From positions 1-54,440 of the forward strand of contig CALXEY010000002.1 of assembly GCA_944387455.1 (NCBI GenBank): a stretch of DNA of 54,440 nt, in the 5' to 3' direction. This DNA is from an uncultured Clostridia bacterium (GTDB lineage Bacteria > Bacillota > Clostridia > TANB77 > CAG-508). The translations under genes were made by a program, and so were the position numbers. This document shows, piece by piece, positions 22,004-31,814 of this stretch. The notes under the pieces were generated by a model that ran no database searches, was not told where the DNA came from, and saw nothing but the letters and a program-made list of their open reading frames with translations. Position 1 is the first letter of the stretch; each line of letters starts with the position of its first letter.

Positions 22004-22131
22004 GTTACAAATATTTTTTTGTAACATAATGATACTTATGTTACATATAACCTAAAATAATAATAGAAATAAAGAAATATATGTAACATAATTGACTAAA
22101 AGCCTAATATTTATATGTAACATAATTGACA
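22004..22131 (+). promoter_or_regulatory. array of GTAACAT-core repeats upstream of the second recombinase
   Basis: GTTACAAA-n6-TTTGTAAC; GTAACATA-n8-TATGTTAC; and two direct copies of TATATGTAACATAATTGAC (about 22078-22098 and 22112-22131), the second abutting the RBS. Confidence 0.55.
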
Positions 22132-22143
22132 GGAGGTGTAAAT

Positions 22144-23025
22144 ATGTCAGAAGATTTTATGTTAGAAAATTTTAAAAAATATATGATAGAAAACAAATTA
22201 AGTGAAAACACTTACAATTCTTATTTATCAGATGTAAAACAATATATAAACTATTACAAAGATAGTTATGGTGAAGATTTAGTAAAATTAACAGGTTCAG
22301 ATATACAAAGTTATAAATCTTATTTACAATATAATGAAAATCGAAAACCCACTTCAATAAATAGAAAATTAAATGCTTTAAAAAAATTCAACGAATATCT
22401 AGTAGATAAAGGAATACAAAGTGATATATTAATAGATAAAAGAGATTATATAAAAATAGCCCCTATATTTGTAAAAGACGATGTACCTGATGAAAAAGAA
22501 ATTAAAAAGCTAATACATAAAACGGTAGAAAATAAAAGAGATAATTGTATTTTAACAATTGCAACCTATGGAGGACTTCGTGCAAGTGAAATTGTAAATA
22601 TTAAACTTGCTCATATTCATTTGGAGAAAAGATTTATTGCTATTATAGGAAAGGGAGAAAAATATCGTGAAGTAACTGTAAATGATAAAATGTATAGAGC
22701 TATTAAGGATTATTTAGAAGAAAGATTGCAAACTAATCAGGATAACCCATACCTATTTGTAGGTAAGAAAAGTAAATATTATAAGGATAAACCATTATCA
22801 AGAAATGTAATAAATAGAATATTAACCAAATATAATGAAGATATAAAAATAAAAGATTTACACCCACACTTACTTAGACATTTTTATAGTTCTCTTGCAT
22901 ATTATAAAGCTGGATATAGTGAGATACAAATTGCCTCTCAATTAGGGCATGCTAGTACTAAGATGACTAGAAGGTACATAGATAATCATAATAAAGATAT
23001 TTTGGAATTATCAAATCGTTTATAA
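22144..23025 (+). CDS. XerC/XerD-like tyrosine recombinase (293 aa)
   Basis: An N-terminal SAM-like domain, then 'TYGGLRASEI', 'HPHLLRHFYSS' and 'LGHASTKMTRRY' (R..H-x-x-R..H..Y). Start at the ATG after AGGAGG. Confidence 0.9.
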   Translation: MSEDFMLENFKKYMIENKLSENTYNSYLSDVKQYINYYKDSYGEDLVKLTGSDIQSYKSYLQYNENRKPTSINRKLNALKKFNEYLVDKGIQSDILIDKRDYIKIAPIFVKDDVPDEKEIKKLIHKTVENKRDNCILTIATYGGLRASEIVNIKLAHIHLEKRFIAIIGKGEKYREVTVNDKMYRAIKDYLEERLQTNQDNPYLFVGKKSKYYKDKPLSRNVINRILTKYNEDIKIKDLHPHLLRHFYSSLAYYKAGYSEIQIASQLGHASTKMTRRYIDNHNKDILELSNRL

Positions 23026-23094
23026 AAAACTCTAAAATAAAAGTAGTTTCGTATAATTATACAAAACTACTTTAGGACCTACATTCTCGGATTT

Positions 23095-23307
23095 TCAGTT
23101 TAGCGATAACAAAATAATTATTAAAAAAATAATTATTCCTGAAAAAATCGCTTTTGCTGCTTCTTCCGTAATTCCAAAACTTCTAATACGATTTATTATA
23201 CTTTGATACAAGTATGAAAAAATCGGTTTAGAAATGTTCCAAAAAATCCGAAAGAATATCCAAACGATAAACAAAGACATCAATATGGCTATTCCTATTA
23301 CCCACAT
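23095..23307 (-). CDS. small two-TM membrane protein (70 aa)
   Basis: Two hydrophobic segments, RBS GAGGAGG, and its own promoter TTGAAA-17-TATAAT at 23350-23378. Confidence 0.5.
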   Translation of the reverse strand: MWVIGIAILMSLFIVWIFFRIFWNISKPIFSYLYQSIINRIRSFGITEEAAKAIFSGIIIFLIIILLSLN

Positions 23308-23433
23308 TAGTCCGTCCTCCTCTTTACATTCAGAATCCTTACATTAAGTATTATATCATATTCTTTCTATTTTTTCAACTTTATGTACACTTTCTTTAAT
23401 AAGAAGGTGGTGTCAGTTGACACCACCTTCCTT

Positions 23434-25305
23434 TCACATCACAAACCTAAAGACACTGCCGTCTCTAGCCAGTACATACAGTTCGCTACGATTTTCATTT
23501 ATATAAACCACTTCAAAAGATGAATTAATGGTAATAACATCTATAAGTGGGGTCTCTGTAACAACATTGGAAATAGGCATATTGGCCACATACGGCATTA
23601 CAGAAATCATCTTTCCTTTTGCCGGTAAGCATAATGTAGCACGATAAAACACACTTCCTTGTAAATTCGTGTTGCTATAGTCGATGTCCTTTGTTTGGGA
23701 AACAATCTTCCCTCTCCTAAATACAATTGTATTGTATTGGGAGTTATGCAACTTTGCAACCCAAATCCACATATTGGAAACAGCATCATACTTCATTATG
23801 ATTGGCATTTGCTTAGGTAGTAATGTGATTTTACCACCAATGTCTATCTCAATGCCATTTTGTTGAGGAGAGATTATAGCATAATTTAAGTTGGGACCAA
23901 CATTATATTCAAAAGCTGTTGGCTTTTGGGCAACTTGGCATTCCTCGACATTACCATTATGAATGGTTAGCCTTTTAAGAGTGTGTGTAGATTCCTCTAC
24001 ATAATATATCGAGTTTTCGGCAATCTTAATAGTTGCTCCATTCTCGACATATCCCTTATAAATCTGTGTTTCATCTTTATAAAGGTATAGATTACACTCG
24101 TTATTATTGAAAAGAGTTGCCTTTTTGAACAAAGATAGAGGCTTAATCTTAAGCATATATCTTTCATCGTCCAAAAAATTTGTGTCCCTTTTTCCAAAAC
24201 CTTTAACGCTCTTCCGTACTTCTTCTCCTCTGTCATTTACGCGAACAACTTCACCTACATTATTAAGGTAAGTCCTGTAGTCATAAAGTTGTTGAACATT
24301 TTGACAGGGAATAAATATCTCTCCAGAAAAAGCTCGATCTTTTTTGGTAACCGTTCTAGTAGCTTGTAGATACTTGCTACACTTGGGACATCTATTATAT
24401 GAACCATCATAGTAACCTTGATGGCGTTTGCAATACTGCAAACTCATCAATTGCTTAAAAAGGATAGGTCCAATATTGTACCTTTTTCTTCTCTCAAAAA
24501 TATCAAGAAAAGCCTCTTTAAGCTCGTCAGACATCCAAATGTCCCAGGTCTTCCCCTTCATTAGTTTAATATCATGGTCTCCAAGAACTGAAAGTTGATT
24601 TCTGGCTCTCAGTTCAGTAGGCATTTTCTTGTCGACCTGATAAACTCCACCAAAAGGATGCTCACCTGTTAGTACCTTAAATGCAATAACAGCCAAAGAA
24701 TAATAATCATTAGCCTGCGAATAAGATTTAACAGTTACATCTCTACAAGAAAAATCTCTTGCTATTGGATCAACATAATAGGGAAGACACTTTCTGTCAG
24801 CGGCCAATAGCTCATCTGAGCCATTCCAACCCCAAGAATCTGTATCAACGAAGTAAATATCTTCATCCACAACCAAAACTTGTCCAGGATGAAAATCACC
24901 TATAATTAAGCCAAGATTATGAATCTTCTCTACAGCTTGCGCAACTTTTATCATAATCTGCAGACTCTTTTTAAGGTCCATTTTGTTTAAAAATGATTTT
25001 TCTGCAATATAGTCCAAATCTTTTGCATTCTGAACATATCGCATAGTATAACCAACAAAATGGTCATTTACACTTACTTCTTTGATTGGAGCAATTACTT
25101 CTCCAAAATTAACATTCCGGAATTGGCTAATAAGCCGTCTTATTTTTTTATACTTTCTTGCTAAATTCACTTCATTCGCGTTGAAGATTTTTATAGCAAG
25201 ATGATGATGGTCATCATATACCGTTCCCTCTCCTCCAAGATGAGAATTAAGTTGCCTTAACCTTTCATTGAGTTGGTTGGTGCTTGAGAATCTAAAATTG
25301 TTCAT
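23434..25305 (-). CDS. Ser/Thr protein-kinase-like protein (TerY-P type) with zinc ribbon and ~300-aa C-terminal domain (623 aa)
   Basis: 'LGGEGTVY' is the Gly loop and 'LAIKIF' carries the Lys. 'IIGDFHPGQVLV' is the catalytic loop and 'FVDTDSW' is DFG-like. Also present are 'DYYSLAVIAFKVLTGEHPF' and the zinc ribbon 'CKRH..CPKC'. Confidence 0.8.
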   Translation of the reverse strand: MNNFRFSSTNQLNERLRQLNSHLGGEGTVYDDHHHLAIKIFNANEVNLARKYKKIRRLISQFRNVNFGEVIAPIKEVSVNDHFVGYTMRYVQNAKDLDYIAEKSFLNKMDLKKSLQIMIKVAQAVEKIHNLGLIIGDFHPGQVLVVDEDIYFVDTDSWGWNGSDELLAADRKCLPYYVDPIARDFSCRDVTVKSYSQANDYYSLAVIAFKVLTGEHPFGGVYQVDKKMPTELRARNQLSVLGDHDIKLMKGKTWDIWMSDELKEAFLDIFERRKRYNIGPILFKQLMSLQYCKRHQGYYDGSYNRCPKCSKYLQATRTVTKKDRAFSGEIFIPCQNVQQLYDYRTYLNNVGEVVRVNDRGEEVRKSVKGFGKRDTNFLDDERYMLKIKPLSLFKKATLFNNNECNLYLYKDETQIYKGYVENGATIKIAENSIYYVEESTHTLKRLTIHNGNVEECQVAQKPTAFEYNVGPNLNYAIISPQQNGIEIDIGGKITLLPKQMPIIMKYDAVSNMWIWVAKLHNSQYNTIVFRRGKIVSQTKDIDYSNTNLQGSVFYRATLCLPAKGKMISVMPYVANMPISNVVTETPLIDVITINSSFEVVYINENRSELYVLARDGSVFRFVM

Positions 25306-25439
25306 TTTAAATACCCCCCTAACAACTGTTGTTAAATGTTTGACTAATCGTAGCTATAACACAATGTACTGGTTTCGTAATATGACGATAGAGTAAACTA
25401 TCATTTTCAATGTACTTATATCTATAAAGATACGTTTAT

Positions 25440-25468
25440 ATTTTAACATAAATTTCCAAAATAGTCAA
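25440..25468 (-). promoter_or_regulatory. sigma-A-type promoter of the kinase gene
   Basis: The minus strand reads TTGACT-17 nt-(TG)TTAAAAT. Confidence 0.55.
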
Positions 25469-25561
25469 TATTATGTAAATATATTGCTTTTATTAATAAA
25501 AAAACAAAGTAGAGGAAATTAATTAAAAACCTCTACTTTGTTCTTTCATAAATATACAGTA

Positions 25562-26578
25562 CTATTTATATTTTTTTGCTATTGCGTCCACAATATTAAA
25601 ACTTCTACTTATACTAAATCTAATTTCATCTGGACTTTTCAAATAATACGCAAAAACTTGGGCAAAATATTCCTCTACACTTGATATTCCATAATCATCT
25701 TTAGTTTGATTATAGTATATATTTTTTTCTTTTTTATATGCTCCATAAAACTCTATAACAAGTTTAGACGTAATATTAAGCATATGCATATAATGCCCAA
25801 ATTCATGGAATAATATCATGTCCAAATTATCTTTAGATGCCTTAACCACTATTTGCTGGACATCACTAATTAGATAACCCACAAAACTTTTTCCTTGTTC
25901 ATCATTTCTCCATTCTCTTGAATTAGTTAAAACAACTTTCCAACCATCGCTTACAAAACGCTTTCTTAAGCCAATAGGAATTATTTCCCAGGCTTTTATT
26001 ATTTCAAAAACTTGCTTTTCAGTTACATCTGTTCCAATCTGTAAATAATTTGGCAAAATAGATGTTCTTACTTTAAAAATATCCTCATTTAACCAACTTT
26101 TTACATATGCACAGGCTTTGGAATATGCATATCTATTATCATGAGGATTTTCAAGCATTCTAATAAACAATAATTCAAAAATCTTTTCCAAATTTATTTC
26201 GGAAATTCTTGTTAATAAAATACTTGATAATAGCTTTTCTTCATTTCTACAAACCTTTTTGAAGAAATCATTTTCCACTGGGTTTCCATATTCAATTTTG
26301 ATATACCAAATAAACCCAATATATACTATCCCTTTTGTAAAAGGTGCTATTTTAATATTAATCCATATTCTTTTTTCATTTGGATCTGAAAAAATTAGCG
26401 TATTTGGATCATAAGTTCCACTAATCGAAATATCAGTTGTAAAAACTATTTGCCAGTTATCCTTTTGAAATCTTCGTATCCAATTTCTAGGAATTCTCTC
26501 ATATTGCTCCTTAAATTCTCTTAATTGTTGCTGACTAATATCTTTAGTATAAATAACTGTATCCCGAAGTTTTTTCAT
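25562..26578 (-). CDS. tandem ATLF-like (anthrax lethal-factor-type) zincin; N-terminal copy degenerate, C-terminal copy with HExxH (338 aa)
   Basis: 'LFHEFGHYMH...SSVEEYFAQVFAYY' matches the HExxH plus downstream E-x-x-x-A-E/Q pattern. Both halves begin with a similar 'IP..(W/L)..RF..D(N/G)W(Q/K)(I/V)V(F/L)T' segment. Confidence 0.6.
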   Translation of the reverse strand: MKKLRDTVIYTKDISQQQLREFKEQYERIPRNWIRRFQKDNWQIVFTTDISISGTYDPNTLIFSDPNEKRIWINIKIAPFTKGIVYIGFIWYIKIEYGNPVENDFFKKVCRNEEKLLSSILLTRISEINLEKIFELLFIRMLENPHDNRYAYSKACAYVKSWLNEDIFKVRTSILPNYLQIGTDVTEKQVFEIIKAWEIIPIGLRKRFVSDGWKVVLTNSREWRNDEQGKSFVGYLISDVQQIVVKASKDNLDMILFHEFGHYMHMLNITSKLVIEFYGAYKKEKNIYYNQTKDDYGISSVEEYFAQVFAYYLKSPDEIRFSISRSFNIVDAIAKKYK

Positions 26579-26654
26579 TATAAACTCCTTTCAAACTGTA
26601 CTATATATCTATTTTCAATGTTCTACTCAAATGCTATTTACATTTGCTACCACT

Positions 26655-26683
26655 ATTATATATTATTATTTTAATTATGTCAA
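26655..26683 (-). promoter_or_regulatory. sigma-A-type promoter of the zincin gene
   Basis: The minus strand reads TTGACA-17 nt-TATAAT. Confidence 0.55.
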
Positions 26684-26741
26684 CAATTTCGTATTTTCTT
26701 TGTATATTAAGCAATATATAGTATTTAGATTATTATTTTTT

Positions 26742-26777
26742 AAAAAAGATAGAGTGGAGAAATATCTCCACTCTATC
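26742..26777 (-). terminator. rho-independent terminator after the vWA gene
   Basis: A GATAGAGTGGAGA-aatat-CTCCACTCTATC hairpin followed by a T-run on the minus strand. Confidence 0.7.
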
Positions 26778-26811
26778 CCCTGTTTAAAAGATTCATGTCT
26801 AGTTGTTGTTC

Positions 26812-27540
26812 TTACTTATCATTCCCTTGGGATTTCTTAATAGTTCCGATAGACACAAACTTCATAATCTTATGCAAATCATGAATGGTTGCATCTGTTC
26901 TGACCACATTAACAATCCCCAACTGGTGAGCCAAGTTCTCGCATTGATTACTGCCAAATGCGATAAAGCAAACTGTAACATCATCATCCTGCATGTTCTT
27001 TACAGATTGCTTCGTTTCTTCAAGACTAGCTACTGAATCGTTATCAAGTCCATCAGAAAGGATGCACAAGACAGCTTGTACAGAAACGCCCTTTTGCATA
27101 AGGTCATCCCTATACTGCTTAATTCGACGCTCGCTATCGATAATGCTGTCAAAAAGCTTCGTGCAGCCTGAAACAGCTGAATAGCTTGTGTCAAACTTTT
27201 CGACATCTGTATAGCCTCCAGGCTCTACAGTATCGGCAAACAAAGTCTTGGAAATCTGAATTCGGTTCACCTCTTCCGAAGTGACAATTGACTCCTTTAC
27301 CAGTTCAAGTGCTTGTTCCATTGCTCTAGTGAAACCACCCATCGAACCGGACTTGTCAATGTCAAGTCGAAGCAATGTTTGTGAAGAACTCTTGAGCTCA
27401 TTTACTGGAGTATTGACCGTTTCGATATTGTCGGACTCCAGTTCCGGCCCAAAATTCTCTTCAATCCCCACAGCATCGTAGTCATCGTTAAAAGAATTCC
27501 ACGCTGCACTGCCGAACATGTTCTCGTCTTGCTTAGCCAT
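26812..27540 (-). CDS. TerY-like von Willebrand factor A domain protein (242 aa)
   Basis: MIDAS 'DIDKSGSMGG', with 'ILSDGLDN' later in the protein. Start chosen at ATGGCTAAG after GAGAGGAG; the track's TTG start at 27606 lies inside the promoter/operator. Confidence 0.8.
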   Translation of the reverse strand: MAKQDENMFGSAAWNSFNDDYDAVGIEENFGPELESDNIETVNTPVNELKSSSQTLLRLDIDKSGSMGGFTRAMEQALELVKESIVTSEEVNRIQISKTLFADTVEPGGYTDVEKFDTSYSAVSGCTKLFDSIIDSERRIKQYRDDLMQKGVSVQAVLCILSDGLDNDSVASLEETKQSVKNMQDDDVTVCFIAFGSNQCENLAHQLGIVNVVRTDATIHDLHKIMKFVSIGTIKKSQGNDK

Positions 27541-27599
27541 TGTGAGACTCCTCTCAAAATCTCTTTCTTGATCTTTATGCATGAATCTTTTAAAACAGG

Positions 27600-27653
27600 T
27601 TGTCAACGAACTCTTGACAAATATATTATACCAAACTTTTCCATCTTTGTCAA
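27600..27653 (-). promoter_or_regulatory. promoter plus palindromic operator of the vWA gene
   Basis: The minus strand reads TTGACA-17-(TG)GTATAAT at 27625-27653. It is followed by the inverted repeat TTGTCAA-n7-TTGACAA at 27600-27620. Confidence 0.6.
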
Positions 27654-27705
27654 CATAATATAATCAGTTATGTTAAGCTTATTGGTTTTACTTATGATTT
27701 TATTT

Positions 27706-30700
27706 TTATCTTTCAGATAAAGCTTTTTCTCCCATTAATTTTTTCCTTAACAAAAGTGTTTCGTTACCCAAAATAGGCTCTGCATATGTTCTTTCTGGTG
27801 TTATTCTCATATATGTTCCATCTTCTATACAATTTGATGATACACTTAATTGATATTCTTCAGGTGTTAACGAAATTTTACAATCTTCTAATAGTTTCTT
27901 ATAAAGTGTTTCCGCACTTTTTTTATCACCAGATTTTGAAAGTAATCTTATCATTGACTTTCTGCCTTTTGTTAATTTAGCTCTATATTCCATCCAACAA
28001 TCTATTTCATCGATAACTTTTCCATTCGCTCTAGCTTCTTTAATTTTTGGATCATATCGTTCTAATTTTTCTCTTCTTACTGCTTGCATATACTCTTCAT
28101 ATATCTTCTCTGCTTTATCAAATTCTCCATTTTCTACATATAATTCTCCCAAATCTATAAAATTATCTTCAAGTATAGAAATAGTATCTTCGCCTCTTGA
28201 TAAAACTTCGTTTTTTCTTAGAATTGTAATAGCTGATTTTAATAATCTTTCTGCCTCTTTTTCCTTACCTGGAATAGTAGACAATCTATGTCCTGTTTTA
28301 TATGTTGCTAATCCTTTAACTAATTCATCATCTGATGTCATATCATATATATCCTTATGTATAACACTCCTATTCACTTCTTCAAGAGATTTTTTTGCTT
28401 TTCCTCCAACAAGTCCTTTTGCTAAAACACTGTAACTATGATACCTTTTATTAAATTCTTCTATTTGAGCTTTTCTTTCTGCTTCTATCCTTGCTCGTTC
28501 CTCTGCTGCTTTTCTTTCTGCCTCTATTCTTGCTCGTTCCTCTGCTGCTTTTCTTTCTGCCTCTATTCTTGCTCGTTCCTCTGCTGCTTTTCTTTCTGCC
28601 TCTATTCTTGCTTGTTCCTCTGCTGCTTTTCTCTCTGCCTCTTTTCTTGCTTGTTCCTCTGCTGCTTTTCTCTCTGCCTCTATTCTTGCTTGTTCCTCTG
28701 CTGCTTTTCCTTCTGCTTCTATTCTTGGATAACCTACGGGTGTAATATTCTCTACTGTAGCTTCTTTTTGACTATCCGTTACCTCTCTTATTGGTTCATT
28801 TTTTTGTTGTATAGCTCCTGCTTTTAAATCTTCCCCAACTCCTGTTAGTTCTTCTAATATTTTTGGTTTCGTATTACTTCTTCCACTTTCTTTTCTAATA
28901 GCACTTTTTCCTCTTCCAATATTATGTATTTTGTTTGTTATTGGCTCGAAGAAGCTTTTGACATCATTTATCTGAGATTTATCTGTTTTTGGTTTTCTTA
29001 TTTTTGGACTAGTAACTACTCTTTTTCTCTGCATCGTAGTTGCTTTCGGTCTTGCCCTGTTAGCAACTTGCTGTCTTTCTGTTTTTATCTGTGATTTCTT
29101 TGCTAATAAAGCTTCATCTCCAATTATAGAATAAGTTATTGCATTACCTTTTCTAATCTTTACATATTTTCCATCTTTTATATAATTATTCTTTTTACTT
29201 AATTCATATTCTTCTGGACTTAATACAATTCCTGAATCATCTAACATTTGTCTATACAAATCCTCTGCTTCAAACTCTTTTCCAACCATACTTAAAATAT
29301 ATAATTCTCCTCGTTGTCCATTAACAACTTTTCTTCTATATATCATCCAATAGTCTATTTCTTCTATAGTATTTCCATTTTTTCTAGATTGTAACATCAA
29401 AGGATTTAATCTTTCTATTCTTTCCTTTTCTAATATACTCATATATCTTTTATTAATACTTCCTGCACTTGAATAGTCTTTTTGTCTTAAATATAAATTT
29501 CTTAAGCTAAGTAATGTTTCTTCTAAATAGTCAAATACTTTTTCTGATTCTGCAAATAAATTTTTATTTGTGAATTGTTTTTCTGCATCATTTAGGTATT
29601 TTATTGCCTCAACAATGTTCGTTTTAGATAATTCTTTACCTACATTTAATGTTGCAACTGCCCTTATAACAGGATTTTCAGAAGATAATTCATACAATTC
29701 TCGATCAATATCACTTTTACTTATTTCATTTAATGTTTTCAACGGTCTTAAATTGAACAATTTTCTAGCTAAATTAGCATATAATTGATACCTTCTAATA
29801 AATTCATAGTTATCTTTTCTTTTCATGTCATCCTCCTTGTTTTCTTCTTGTATGTTTTCTTCTATACTATTTTCAATTCCTACATTATTTTCTTCTAAAT
29901 CGTCTATATCCTTACTTATTCTCTCAGGATTTTCTTTTCTTCTTATTTTATCCAATATTTTTTCTATTAAACCTTTTTTTCTATATACTTCCCCACCTAT
30001 TTTTTCTTCTGTTTTTCCTGCTCTTTTCATTAATCTTGCATTCTTTCCTTTTAGTTTTGAATTTACAAGATTATGTTTCAAATTAAACCATAATCCTTCC
30101 ATATTATTTACACATTCTATGTATTTATTCATTTCTTCATCATTATATAGCGCACTAATAACAACTGGATTAAGTTTTCTTCTTAACCTTATAGCTTGTA
30201 TTATATTTCTGGTAAAATTACGACATTTTTTATTTATTTGAAACTTGGCATAAATATCTTTTTTTTCATCCATAATATCTTCTATATTTCGTTGATATTT
30301 TTTTCCATTTACAGTCTCAAATTCTACCACACCTCTCTCTTCATCTATATCTATGCTAAATATTTTCTCTTCGTTATAAATAGGTTGAATATTTTTTTTA
30401 ATTTGATTTTCTGTGTTAGAAATCATTATATCCTTTGGTTTATTCTTTATTGTTGAAGTAACAGGAATTGGCGGTATCACTTCTTTTAAAACTTTTGCAT
30501 TTTGTGTATTAGGGCTTACATTTCTTTGTATTGTTGGTATCATTATCGTTTCGTCCCCATTTGTTCTTAATGATGTTCTTGGCGTTTTATTATTAATACC
30601 ATATGTTTTACTCTTTTCGTTATGCAAACTGTTAATATTCTGAGTTTCACTAGATAAATCTTCATTATTTTTAGAGAAAGCTGTTGTTTCACTTACTGTT

Positions 30701-30831
30701 TTTGGTTCTTTATTTTCTTTACGACGAAAAAAAATATTAATAAATTTATTTTTTATATTATTAAATGTTTTCTTTATATTATTTAAAACATTTTTAAATC
30801 CATCTTTTATTTTTGAAAAAAATTCTTTCAT
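27706..30831 (-). CDS. 1041-aa protein with two ~230-aa paralogous helical-repeat modules separated by a tandem RIEAERKAAEE(Q/R)A array
   Basis: The modules '...EKERIERLNPLMLQSRKNGNTIEEIDYWMIYRRK...LSPEEYELSKKNNYIKDGKYVKI' and '...RREKLERYDPKIKEARANGKVIDEIDCWMEYRAK...LTPEEYQLSVSSNCIEDGTYMRI' are clearly homologous. No known catalytic motif was seen. Confidence 0.7.
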   Translation of the reverse strand: MKEFFSKIKDGFKNVLNNIKKTFNNIKNKFINIFFRRKENKEPKTVSETTAFSKNNEDLSSETQNINSLHNEKSKTYGINNKTPRTSLRTNGDETIMIPTIQRNVSPNTQNAKVLKEVIPPIPVTSTIKNKPKDIMISNTENQIKKNIQPIYNEEKIFSIDIDEERGVVEFETVNGKKYQRNIEDIMDEKKDIYAKFQINKKCRNFTRNIIQAIRLRRKLNPVVISALYNDEEMNKYIECVNNMEGLWFNLKHNLVNSKLKGKNARLMKRAGKTEEKIGGEVYRKKGLIEKILDKIRRKENPERISKDIDDLEENNVGIENSIEENIQEENKEDDMKRKDNYEFIRRYQLYANLARKLFNLRPLKTLNEISKSDIDRELYELSSENPVIRAVATLNVGKELSKTNIVEAIKYLNDAEKQFTNKNLFAESEKVFDYLEETLLSLRNLYLRQKDYSSAGSINKRYMSILEKERIERLNPLMLQSRKNGNTIEEIDYWMIYRRKVVNGQRGELYILSMVGKEFEAEDLYRQMLDDSGIVLSPEEYELSKKNNYIKDGKYVKIRKGNAITYSIIGDEALLAKKSQIKTERQQVANRARPKATTMQRKRVVTSPKIRKPKTDKSQINDVKSFFEPITNKIHNIGRGKSAIRKESGRSNTKPKILEELTGVGEDLKAGAIQQKNEPIREVTDSQKEATVENITPVGYPRIEAEGKAAEEQARIEAERKAAEEQARKEAERKAAEEQARIEAERKAAEERARIEAERKAAEERARIEAERKAAEERARIEAERKAQIEEFNKRYHSYSVLAKGLVGGKAKKSLEEVNRSVIHKDIYDMTSDDELVKGLATYKTGHRLSTIPGKEKEAERLLKSAITILRKNEVLSRGEDTISILEDNFIDLGELYVENGEFDKAEKIYEEYMQAVRREKLERYDPKIKEARANGKVIDEIDCWMEYRAKLTKGRKSMIRLLSKSGDKKSAETLYKKLLEDCKISLTPEEYQLSVSSNCIEDGTYMRITPERTYAEPILGNETLLLRKKLMGEKALSER
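28469..28730 (-). repeat. in-frame 39-nt tandem repeat, about 6.7 copies, encoding (R/K)(I/K)EAERKAAEE(Q/R)A
   Basis: Copies of GCTTTTCTTTCTGCCTCTATTCTTGCTCGTTCCTCTGCT start every 39 nt from 28469 (28508, 28547, 28586...). They are near-identical. Confidence 0.9.
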
Positions 30832-30865
30832 ATTCTCCTCCCATTAATTAACAATATGCAATAAT

Positions 30866-30894
30866 ATTATACCAGTTTTCTCCTATTCTGTCAA
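30866..30894 (-). promoter_or_regulatory. sigma-A-type promoter of the 1041-aa gene
   Basis: The minus strand reads TTGACA-17-(TG)GTATAAT, preceded by GGTTACATAATAA. Confidence 0.6.
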
Positions 30895-30947
30895 TTATTA
30901 TGTAACCTTTTAATTTGCTAAATATCCTTGCTTAGTCAAACTTACTT

Positions 30948-30989
30948 ACAAAAAAACACGTAGTACATTGATTATTGTACTACGTGTTT
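30948..30989 (-). terminator. rho-independent terminator after the PP2C gene
   Basis: A 14-bp perfect stem AAACACGTAGTACA/TGTACTACGTGTTT plus a T-run on the minus strand. Confidence 0.8.
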
Positions 30990-30997
30990 GAAGTAAA

Positions 30998-31678
30998 TTA
31001 AGAGGCAATAGAAATGTCATCTAGTATTAATTCTTTGTTTCTTCTAAGAATTGTTTCAATTTCCCTTTGGTTTCTTTCTACCAAAGCTTTTTTAAACAAA
31101 TCCCTATCCTTAGAAGGAAACTTATCACCAAGCACAAATCTTAATCCATCACTAGCAACATATACATGTTTATATTGAGTTTTTGAAAAATATTTTTTAC
31201 CAAATATTACCTTTGTACTGTATCGTTGCCTATTTGGAATATAATTATATGCTAAATATTTTGGTGCTTCTCCATTTGCAACATTCACATCATTATCCAG
31301 TTGAATGTACTTAATCACATTTGAATTGTCAACTGTGATAATGAAGCCATCACCTGCTGAATAGACAATATACTCGCTTTTTGTCTCTAAACAGGCAATT
31401 AAAGTAAATTGCAATTCTGCAATAATTCTGTCTTCACTATCATCTTCCATGACAATTTCATAAAATGAAGTATAAGCTATATCTTCAAAGTTTCCCTCAT
31501 TGATTCTCCTTGATTTCTTCCGAAGTGCCTCGCCCATCTTGTGAGCTCCTACTTCTGAATGCTCACCAGAACCACATCCATCCAATACTACTGCAAGGTT
31601 ATTTGTTGAAATAGCATAATCTTGTCCTATATTTTTTCCCATTCCAGTTTGTACAATTTCAATTCCAACCTTTTTCAT
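30998..31678 (-). CDS. PP2C-family Ser/Thr phosphatase (TerY-P type, 226 aa)
   Basis: 'AVVLDGCGSGEHSEVGA' and 'YVASDGLRF' match the compact PP2C of vWA-kinase-phosphatase triads. Confidence 0.7.
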   Translation of the reverse strand: MKKVGIEIVQTGMGKNIGQDYAISTNNLAVVLDGCGSGEHSEVGAHKMGEALRKKSRRINEGNFEDIAYTSFYEIVMEDDSEDRIIAELQFTLIACLETKSEYIVYSAGDGFIITVDNSNVIKYIQLDNDVNVANGEAPKYLAYNYIPNRQRYSTKVIFGKKYFSKTQYKHVYVASDGLRFVLGDKFPSKDRDLFKKALVERNQREIETILRRNKELILDDISIAS

Positions 31679-31785
31679 AACATTCCTCCTTAACAGTAAT
31701 AAACTGAACTTGCCTTTTTACTTTTTATAATTAGCACAAAAAATATTTTATGCTAATCAAACTTACCTCAATAGGTAATGCCTAA

Positions 31786-31814
31786 ATTATACCATTATCA
31801 GTGTTTTTTGTCAA
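31786..31814 (-). promoter_or_regulatory. sigma-A-type promoter of the PP2C gene
   Basis: The minus strand reads TTGACA-17-(TG)GTATAAT. Confidence 0.6.

Follow-up and report, generated by a model that had tools for sequence, protein, structure and literature searches.

A conserved gene cassette of TerY-P-like architecture in an integrative conjugative element of uncultured Clostridia

Results

Six co-oriented genes in the cargo of an integrative conjugative element

The stretch of DNA analyzed here, hereafter the window (54,440 nt; contig CALXEY010000002.1 of assembly GCA_944387455.1, from an uncultured Clostridia bacterium), is a 25%-GC Firmicute integrative conjugative element (ICE). It carries six co-oriented genes on the minus strand, in the order PP2C-type Ser/Thr phosphatase, 1041-aa helical protein, standalone von Willebrand factor A (vWA) protein, zincin metalloprotease, Ser/Thr kinase and 70-aa protein with two transmembrane (TM) helices. 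A preliminary description of this DNA had recognized five of them, and all five open reading frames (ORFs) are present on the minus strand where it had placed them. Its five-component architecture was nonetheless incomplete, since the sixth conserved gene (70 aa, two TM helices, 23095-23307) lies outside the interval it covered and had been overlooked. We propose, with a probability of about 0.55, that positions 23040-31814 constitute one conserved, horizontally mobile cassette built around a vWA/PP2C/Ser-Thr kinase phospho-switch of the TerY-P architectural type. Its features, in the direction of transcription, are as follows.

31786-31814, minus strand: perfect sigma-70-type promoter of the PP2C gene (TTGACA-17-TATAAT with TG extension; promoter scan)
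30998-31678, minus strand: PP2C-type Ser/Thr phosphatase gene, 226 aa (Pfam PP2C_2 and invariant residues)
30954-30989, minus strand: intrinsic terminator hairpin 3' of the PP2C gene (scan)
30866-30894, minus strand: perfect sigma-70-type promoter of the 1041-aa gene (promoter scan)
27706-30831, minus strand: gene for the 1041-aa helical, scaffold-like protein (ORF; homologue in every cassette of the clade)
29086-29805, minus strand: TPR/PPR-like helical module 1, aa 343-582 (33% identity to module 2)
28469-28727, minus strand: 39-bp tandem repeat, 6.6 copies, 95% identical, encoding (A/R)IEAERKAAEE(Q/R) (repeat analysis)
27709-28470, minus strand: TPR/PPR-like helical module 2, aa 788-1041 (identity to module 1; profile search)
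27625-27653, minus strand: perfect sigma-70-type promoter of the vWA gene (scan; kept in five other lineages)
26812-27540, minus strand: standalone vWA gene, 242 aa from ATG (Pfam VWA, metal-site motif, starts of homologues)
26742-26780, minus strand: terminator hairpin 3' of the vWA gene (read from the sequence; compensatory changes in relatives)
26655-26683, minus strand: perfect sigma-70-type promoter of the zincin gene (scan; kept in five other lineages)
25562-26578, minus strand: ATLF-like zincin gene, 338 aa (Pfam ATLF; invariant residues)
25497-25542, minus strand: terminator hairpin 3' of the zincin gene (read from the sequence)
25440-25468, minus strand: promoter-like site of the kinase gene (TTGACT-17-TAAAAT with TG, 10/12; scan)
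23434-25305, minus strand: kinase gene (Pfam Pkinase)
24436-25248, minus strand: Hanks-type kinase domain, aa 20-290 (Pfam, motifs and AlphaFold2 model)
24379-24432, minus strand: CHCC zinc ribbon of the kinase (C292, H295, C306, C309; invariant in 21 homologues)
23437-24303, minus strand: all-beta C-terminal domain of the kinase, aa 335-623, a predicted beta-propeller and putative sensor (AlphaFold2 and Foldseek)
23403-23430, minus strand: hairpin 3' of the kinase gene, with a weak T tract (read from the sequence)
23350-23378, minus strand: promoter-like site of the 70-aa gene (TTGAAA-17-TATAAT with TG, 11/12; scan)
23095-23307, minus strand: 70-aa two-TM protein gene (conservation, hydropathy)
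23040-23073, minus strand: terminator hairpin closing the cassette (scan)

The window also contains genes for a type IV secretion system (T4SS) coupling protein, a VirB4-like ATPase, a T4SS pilin, PcfJ, a primase and two tyrosine recombinases, which confirms the earlier view of the block as ICE cargo. The cassette is bounded by an integrase gene (22126-23025, plus strand) and two small helix-turn-helix (HTH) genes, and its GC content is 29-37%, against 22-26% for the ICE backbone. A cassette-free version of the ICE was sought by way of the integrase next to the cassette, and all contigs that have this integrase were found to carry the cassette as well. In phage and plasmid collections, megablast with the block detected no close DNA relative.

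Four genes, those for PP2C, the 1041-aa protein, vWA and zincin, are each preceded by a perfect 12/12 TTGACA-17-TATAAT site. The 54-kb window has only six such sites in all, and the chance expectation for the cassette block is below 0.1 (a rough estimate from base composition). The claim that each of the five genes first noted has its own consensus promoter is therefore exact for these four, whereas the kinase site reaches only 10/12, with a TG extension. Hairpins follow the kinase, zincin, vWA and PP2C genes, as had been reported; that of PP2C was found by scan and the other three were read directly. Five other lineages, with protein identities of only 52-90%, keep the perfect consensus in the vWA and zincin promoters, and the hairpin after the vWA gene shows compensatory substitutions in relatives. 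We therefore regard the proposed separate transcription units, delimited by the four perfect promoters, the weaker kinase site and the hairpins, as both correct and a conserved trait.

Components of the putative phospho-switch

The kinase matches Pfam Pkinase at E=8e-10, above the cutoff. It can be recognized as Hanks-type by a motif, SLAVIAF..LTG..PF, that resembles subdomain IX. No variation is seen in the Gly-rich loop (GGEG) or at K39, D137 and D154/D156. In the alignment of 21 homologues, the atypical catalytic loop GDFHPGQ varies hardly at all among members of the clade, and farther relatives have N instead of Q. The AlphaFold2 model (pLDDT, for predicted local distance difference test, 84) has structural matches to IRAK4, BRAF and PknB, and a Foldseek search with the full-length protein returned only kinases. 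Modeled alone, aa 331-623 form 28 strands (pLDDT 80, predicted template modeling score 0.74), and all 50 listed Foldseek matches of this domain in the PDB contain beta-propellers (E down to 8e-6, template modeling score up to 0.51), led by the IFT-A WD40, WIPI/Hsv2, prolyl-oligopeptidase and BamB propellers. The C-terminal domain is predicted to be a propeller of about seven blades, the blade number being estimated from the strand count.

The vWA protein scores just below the cutoff of Pfam VWA (PF00092, E=2e-4); its relative in L016 (homologous loci are designated by L numbers) reaches 29.8 bits, above the cutoff. All homologues begin at the position of ATG 27540, and the -10 element of the promoter ends at 27625, so that translation most likely starts at this ATG (242 aa) rather than at TTG 27606. 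The metal ion-dependent adhesion site (MIDAS; D-x-S-x-S, T, D) is complete: D62, S64, S66, D163 and G164 are invariant among 10 relatives, and T127 nearly so. The N-terminal tail is conserved and acidic, and contains Ser and Thr. Indeed, this is the most conserved protein of the cassette. Searches of the PDB by sequence with the vWA family gave nothing useful, and tblastn against PLSDB, run to link the window vWA to classical plasmid-borne TerY, gave no match. The vWA of L016 was considered as a link to plasmid TerY and rejected, its PLSDB matches being weak and to lone vWA genes without PP2C or kinase neighbors.

Two observations concern the surroundings of the vWA gene. Its 5' leader (about 27575-27620) contains an inverted repeat, TTGTCAA-N7-TTGACAA, directly after the -10 element. 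The repeat is conserved in L001, L005, L013 and L015, where it reads ATGTCA...TG(A/G)CAT, with G/A changes by which G-U pairing in RNA would be preserved; the repeat could form a 5' stem-loop in the mRNA or serve as an operator. In L015, the gene directly upstream of PP2C encodes a second, divergent vWA (L015:218-907), 24-31% identical to that of the cassette; this vWA-PP2C adjacency is like that of contiguous triads. A true second vWA occurs only in L015 and L006.

The phosphatase matches PP2C_2 (PF13672) at E=2e-10 and has the motifs DGCGSG, GDG, SDG and a C-terminal DD, with D33, G34, D110, G111, D220 and D221, among them all the metal-binding aspartates, invariant in nine relatives. The domain calls of the preliminary description are thus upheld for the TerY-like vWA domain, whose DIDKSGSM metal site is intact across relatives, for the compact PP2C (DGCGSG, SDG) with its invariant aspartates, and for the kinase with its atypical loop and zinc ribbon.

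Proteins encoded beside the putative switch

The 1041-aa protein has only sub-threshold TPR/PPR-like matches in Pfam. From its N terminus it consists of a conserved, amphipathic, basic start (MKxFFSKIK...), a low-complexity S/N-rich stretch, a globular region (about aa 150-300), module 1, a K/R-rich linker, an ER/K-type 13-aa repeat and module 2. The internal duplication noted earlier is real, aa 343-582 aligning to aa 788-1041 at 33% identity. The charged 13-aa repeat is probably a single alpha-helix or coiled-coil spacer. The conserved region at aa 150-300 has no database match; PDB sequence searches with aa 138-342 and with the helical module gave nothing useful, and a word-indexed search for homologues of the module gave only two fragments. 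L020 is otherwise 100% identical, but at the tandem repeat it has about 100 nt more and its gene call is interrupted, so that the copy number is variable or the locus mis-assembled.

The zincin matches ATLF (PF07737) at E=1e-5, with 25.9 bits against a gathering cutoff of 27.4, and a precomputed Pfam table assigns this family to 11 of 14 homologues. HEFGH (258-262), Y296 and E302/E303 are invariant, which places the predicted catalytic half at the C terminus; a weak profile match (E=0.02) links the protein to PDB entry 9g0j, an 'ATLF-like domain-containing protein'. The beginning of the catalytic half recurs in the N-terminal half (34% identity over 35 residues, E=9e-6), which appears to be a degenerate, inactive duplicate, recalling the inactive N-terminal domain of lethal factor. 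We found no signal peptide or toxin-delivery domain, and the zincin is therefore probably cytoplasmic.

The 70-aa protein has two hydrophobic helices by hydropathy and is encoded downstream of the kinase in most lineages, with 44-58% identity in L001, L005, L008, L013, L015 and L033 and 35% in L031. It is a candidate membrane effector or anchor. Several loci have a further gene of about 220 codons, antisense between zincin and kinase (L001:9024-9686(-), L005:9038-9700(-), L013:9044-9712(-), L015:7088-7756(-)). This family carries the C-terminal motif CFGYYYEY.FSN..GHI, and had no match in Pfam, PADLOC or PHROGs. The gene is absent from the lineage of the window and L012, which appears to have lost it. 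Paralogues lie upstream of PP2C (L001:1483-2160, L005:2273-2944, and also in L029 and L032); the protein at this position in L001 and L005 had been considered as a second vWA, a candidate that was rejected on finding the paralogy.

The cassette recurs as a unit in unrelated genomic contexts

Neighborhoods were compared in metagenomes and metagenome-assembled genomes (MAGs) of Clostridia/Bacillota, mapping all cassette proteins by tblastn. Homologues of the kinase over its full length fall into 19 clusters, at 42-89% identity. The conserved order is PP2C, helical protein, vWA, zincin, the 220-aa gene on the opposite strand where present, kinase and small TM protein. In its zincin-bearing form it is found in at least six lineages (the window with L020-24; L012; L001-4 with L014; L013; L015; L005/L008/L029/L032), with identities of 77-90% for vWA, 56-84% for the kinase, 55-87% for PP2C, 52-82% for the zincin and about 37-68% for the helical protein. 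Three deeper lineages (L009, L031, L033) have PP2C, helical protein, vWA (53-69% identical) and kinase (42-51% identical), without the zincin; L031 and L033 also carry the small TM gene. The flanks are unrelated between lineages: an ICE, a rho/yabP/yabQ region, a ribosomal-protein operon (adjoining L031, where PP2C is duplicated), and insertion sequence (IS) elements (transposases flank the cassette of L013). The phage-defense candidates PDC-M46A/B directly follow the cassette in L015. Recurrence of the same order, in unrelated contexts, in nine or more lineages of uncultured Clostridia shows that the cassette is a real unit and not a chance neighborhood. The preliminary description had held that its reading would fail if homologues of the zincin and the 1041-aa protein never occurred with vWA, kinase and PP2C genes elsewhere; they do so in the same order, in several independent contexts.

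Because L009, L031 and L033 lack the zincin, we take the helical protein and the small TM protein to be core and the zincin with its 220-aa neighbor to be an accessory insertion. The description of a triad expanded by a protease and a repeat protein thus holds for the former; the helical protein, with homologues in every cassette of the clade, is a core member and not an add-on. The same evidence raises the somewhat unlikely alternative of a composite locus, in which PP2C, helical protein, vWA, kinase and small TM protein form one system and the zincin, with its antisense partner, is a separate insertion such as a protease toxin with an inhibitor or immunity protein. Besides the loci where the remainder of the cassette is intact without it, a 45%-identical zincin has no triad gene nearby in L018 and L019, the zincin is always accompanied by the 220-aa gene except in the lineage of the window and L012, and it has its own perfect promoter and terminator. 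Against this, its position within the sub-clade is the same even though the proteins have diverged by about 45%, and none of these loci has lost the gene; an index-limited search gave at least 14 zincin clusters, all of which, where the context was examined, lie in the cassette except P0068. Moreover, the paralogues upstream of PP2C in L001, L005, L029 and L032 tie the 220-aa family to the whole cassette, which also argues for a single unit.

The family is rare. An exhaustive profile search of 1.84 billion representative proteins gave about 11 true relatives of the helical module, all other matches being short TPR/PPR-like stretches, and in a set with one genome from each of 185,579 species, four loci belong to the cassette clade and two are distant relatives. 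This bears on a second alternative. Pairs of a Hanks kinase and a PP2C are common regulators in Firmicutes, and the cassette could be physiological signaling of the PrkC/PrpC kind that tunes sporulation, the envelope, or ICE transfer and maintenance, with the vWA and TPR-like proteins as adaptors. Most components have no match in the defense libraries, and regulators do lie beside some loci, as HTH and receiver-domain genes in the window and a Spo0A-like response regulator in L001. These neighboring regulators are not conserved between loci, however, and the extreme rarity and patchiness of the family, its association with IS elements or an ICE, and the variation of its genomic position by lineage make this explanation distinctly unlikely. 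The HTH and receiver-domain genes of the window, considered as members of the cassette, were rejected on the same lack of conservation.

One locus departs from the common arrangement. L006 (Logan ERR14295202_1909) has a kinase 100% identical to that of L005 and the small TM gene, without PP2C, helical protein, vWA or zincin; upstream of the kinase are a divergent vWA gene ('vWA2'), a 117-aa gene and a gene for a 989-aa Metallophos protein. Either L006 arose naturally, by deletion or rearrangement, or its assembly is chimeric. In L012, the closest relative of the cassette, a Fic-domain protein (L012:191-880, HPFREGNTR) and a LemA/DUF2207 pair are encoded upstream.

Comparison with TerY-P and other conflict systems

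The TerY-P anti-phage system is reportedly described by Gao et al. (2020). Of the four features that define the triad, the window has three, namely a vWA with MIDAS, a PP2C and a zinc ribbon at the C terminus of the kinase, a place taken by an OB fold in the stand-alone defense form. The fourth, adjacency in one operon, is absent: between the triad genes lie the 1041-aa and zincin genes, and every gene has its own promoter, most of them also a terminator. We use here the architectural definition of Anantharaman et al. (2012), as summarized in PMC11090510 and PMC4978471. TerY-P triads defend against T7-like phages (PMC7699616; 10.1101/2022.08.12.503731).

Relatives at 29-37% identity form tight vWA-PP2C-kinase arrays in a Clostridium MAG (L016) and in L025, a GenBank 'Bacteriophage sp.' fragment from human feces, and because these distant relatives are contiguous, the arrangement in the window is best seen as a rearranged and expanded derivative of a contiguous triad. 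'Split apart', as the triad had been called, is in this respect a fair phrase. In L010 (ENA ERZ920244 scaffold_5, 167.7 kb) the order is vWA, a 104-aa gene and PP2C, with the kinase 6.5 kb further on; this scaffold, which resembles a large phage or plasmid, has dozens of small co-oriented genes, several of them for DUF5758 proteins.

As a sequence reference we used the TerY-P locus of E. coli G3/10 (NZ_CP060075 59618-62877, designated L035), which has been used experimentally and is listed in Table S1 of Stokar-Avihail et al. 2022 (10.1101/2022.08.27.505566). BLASTP of its proteins against those of the window, L016 and L010 gave nothing below E=0.05. With hhalign, the kinase domains align at E=3.5e-5 (probability 72%), GDFHPGQ falling over GDFQTGN and VDTDS over IDYDG; the vWA alignment is marginal (E=2.6e-3, probability 11%), and PP2C gave no match (E=0.42). 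Because only the kinase domain matches at the profile level, the cassette shares the architecture of TerY-P and is not a member at the level of sequence. PADLOC returned no TerY-P-named match for any protein, the L016 triad included, in a copy whose TerY-P models were unconfirmed and that was run without a positive control; its matches to the kinase were generic (PD-T4-6, MkoA, mad6). RefSeq PGAP names the G3/10 genes 'TerY-P anti-phage system ...' and no NCBIfam hidden Markov model (HMM) of that name matches them; the names come from another type of rule, and a scan with NCBIfam HMMs therefore cannot test membership. The earlier match to the TerY-P triad thus stands for the three domain types, with their catalytic and metal-binding motifs intact, while none of the profiles searched gave a TerY-P match. 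Variants of TerY-P missed by detection tools and recognized by domain content have a published precedent (10.1101/2022.08.12.503731). We conclude that the cassette is TerY-P-like in architecture and probably in logic, and is not a demonstrated member of the validated family.

The E. coli locus resembles the cassette in more than its standalone MIDAS vWA, its PP2C and its C-terminally extended Ser/Thr kinase. The unusual catalytic loop is common to the two kinases, as is a D-x-D where DFG would stand, and both loci have a mobile or defense neighborhood, a type I restriction-modification system adjoining the E. coli genes. The latter, however, form a tight vWA-PP2C-kinase operon, whereas the cassette runs PP2C ... 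vWA ... kinase with separate promoters and has two to four extra conserved genes; the E. coli kinase ends in an OB-fold-type domain (PMC11090510), and that of the cassette in a zinc ribbon and predicted propeller. A kinase C-terminally fused to a zinc ribbon is found in the TerY-P triads of CoCoNuT Type II and III-A systems, which are add-on modules tied to other conflict genes, with coiled-coil-rich partners in the same loci (PMC11090510). These systems are McrBC-related, while the cassette lacks McrB/McrC, helicase, HEPN and nuclease, and has as partners the TPR-like scaffold, the zincin and the small TM protein.

By its description, the actinobacterial GAP1-N2 module is similar in having a kinase that bears a zinc ribbon together with a domain rich in beta-strands next to a PP2C and a standalone vWA, a combination known as a conflict-system module (Kaur et al. 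2020, PMC7159879); the module is actinobacterial and linked to GAP1-N2 GTPases, and the cassette is neither. Deinococcus radiodurans DRA0331-0334, again by description (10.64898/2026.01.23.701218), co-encodes a vWA, a Ser/Thr kinase and a PP2C as a signaling module; it differs in its FHA-domain proteins and its role in DNA-damage signaling, no FHA domain having been found in the cassette. Anthrax lethal factor and the Pro-Pro endopeptidases share the HEFGH ... Y ... E gluzincin signature of the cassette zincin, with the same spacing, and lethal factor also has an inactive N-terminal duplicate before its catalytic domain, seen in the zincin over 35 residues. The zincin differs from them in lacking a signal peptide or delivery domain and in being encoded inside a signaling cassette.

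A model for the cassette and the points that weigh on it

We suggest that the cytoplasmic propeller and zinc ribbon of the kinase would sense a ligand derived from an invader or from stress. The kinase may then phosphorylate the acidic N-terminal tail of the vWA protein, with its Ser and Thr, the S/T-rich N-terminal part of the helical protein, or both, and PP2C would reset the switch. The MIDAS of the vWA would engage or release the two-module TPR-like scaffold by binding an acidic or phosphorylated ligand on it, and the two modules of the scaffold, spaced by the rigid charged helix, would recruit output proteins. Output would pass through the small two-TM protein and, in the zincin sub-clade, through an intracellular zincin cleaving host or invader proteins. 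Since each gene has its own strong constitutive promoter, control would be post-translational, and such promoters would fit a system held ready.

From its context, the most likely role of the cassette would be defense of the host or of the ICE against phages or other mobile elements, as suggested by its nature as ICE cargo of foreign GC content, a nearby TmtA-like gene, PDC-M46 in L015, IS elements in L013, the patchy rarity of the family and the anti-phage activity of TerY-P. We advance tentatively the more specific proposal of a multi-gene immune system not described before, in which a TerY-P-type switch is physically coupled through the two-module scaffold to executioners, the small membrane protein and, in one sub-clade, a lethal-factor-like protease.

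Much the same context could suggest that the cassette is a weapon of mobile elements, serving ICEs or phages to manipulate the host or exclude competitors and not to defend the cell. It is ICE cargo in the window, related triads lie on the L010 contig and the L025 phage fragment, and the best structural match of the kinase in BFVD is the full-length 550-aa kinase of 'Myoviridae sp. ctNQV2'. Most copies are chromosomal, however, without mobility genes in the flanks that were examined (L005, L031), and a scan of IMG/VR with the kinase motifs of the clade found no relative; we consider this explanation improbable. Location on a mobile element does not itself discriminate, because many true defense systems also ride on prophages and ICEs.

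Several observations weigh against a single cassette with a defensive role. The substrates, the sensor ligand and the effector roles are all ones that we infer, and the relatives on phage-like contigs (L010, L025 and the BFVD match) could equally mean an offensive role. The vWA and PP2C have no significant similarity to the validated E. coli proteins, and no defense-library profile recognizes the vWA, the zincin or the helical protein, the hits to the kinase being generic. With a promoter for every gene and terminators for most, co-regulation is not evident. The zincin is separable, being missing from L009, L031 and L033 and alone in L018, and L006 retains the kinase and the small TM gene but none of the remaining genes. 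Finally, the family is known only from metagenomes.

Significance

Comparative-genomic surveys have already described both the triad and the architecture of kinase, zinc ribbon and beta-rich domain. What is new, as far as the searchable literature shows, is their fixed link to a private family of helical scaffolds, a small TM protein and a lethal-factor-like zincin, together with the rearranged order and the gene-by-gene layout of promoters and terminators; no paper combining ATLF, vWA and kinase was found in that literature. TerY-P is a validated anti-phage system; as far as the literature consulted shows, its three genes encode no obvious effector, and its sensing and its killing or blocking steps have not been worked out. 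If the parts work together, the cassette names candidate substrates, partners and outputs of TerY-P-like triads, and the predicted propeller gives the kinase a sensor-like ligand domain. If it is indeed an immune system, it supplies effector or partner proteins not evident in classical three-gene TerY-P and thus a handle on how such triads act. It would also be ICE cargo of human- or animal-gut Clostridia that current defense annotation overlooks. The tiny, metagenome-only family limits the weight of these points.

Other genes of the element

About 5 kb from the cassette, a minus-strand gene (36590-38638) encodes a 682-aa protein with HATPase_c_3/sacsin-like and NOV_C domains, which matches the PADLOC model TmtA (Tiamat) at E=1e-52 over less than half of the model length; it is probably a second defense-type cargo gene of the same ICE. 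The 684-aa ORF beside it (38889-40943) had no match in Pfam or PADLOC. Further on, the match of the coupling protein to T4SS-DNA_transf has covered the profile only to position 328 of 468 when its ORF (41481-42746, minus strand) ends; this ORF is preceded and overlapped by another (42718-43647, minus strand), and the coupling-protein gene may be split or frameshifted. Finally, an 878-aa surface protein (44802-47438, minus strand) with a thioester domain and four SpaA-type prealbumin-like domains is presumably an adhesin encoded by the ICE.

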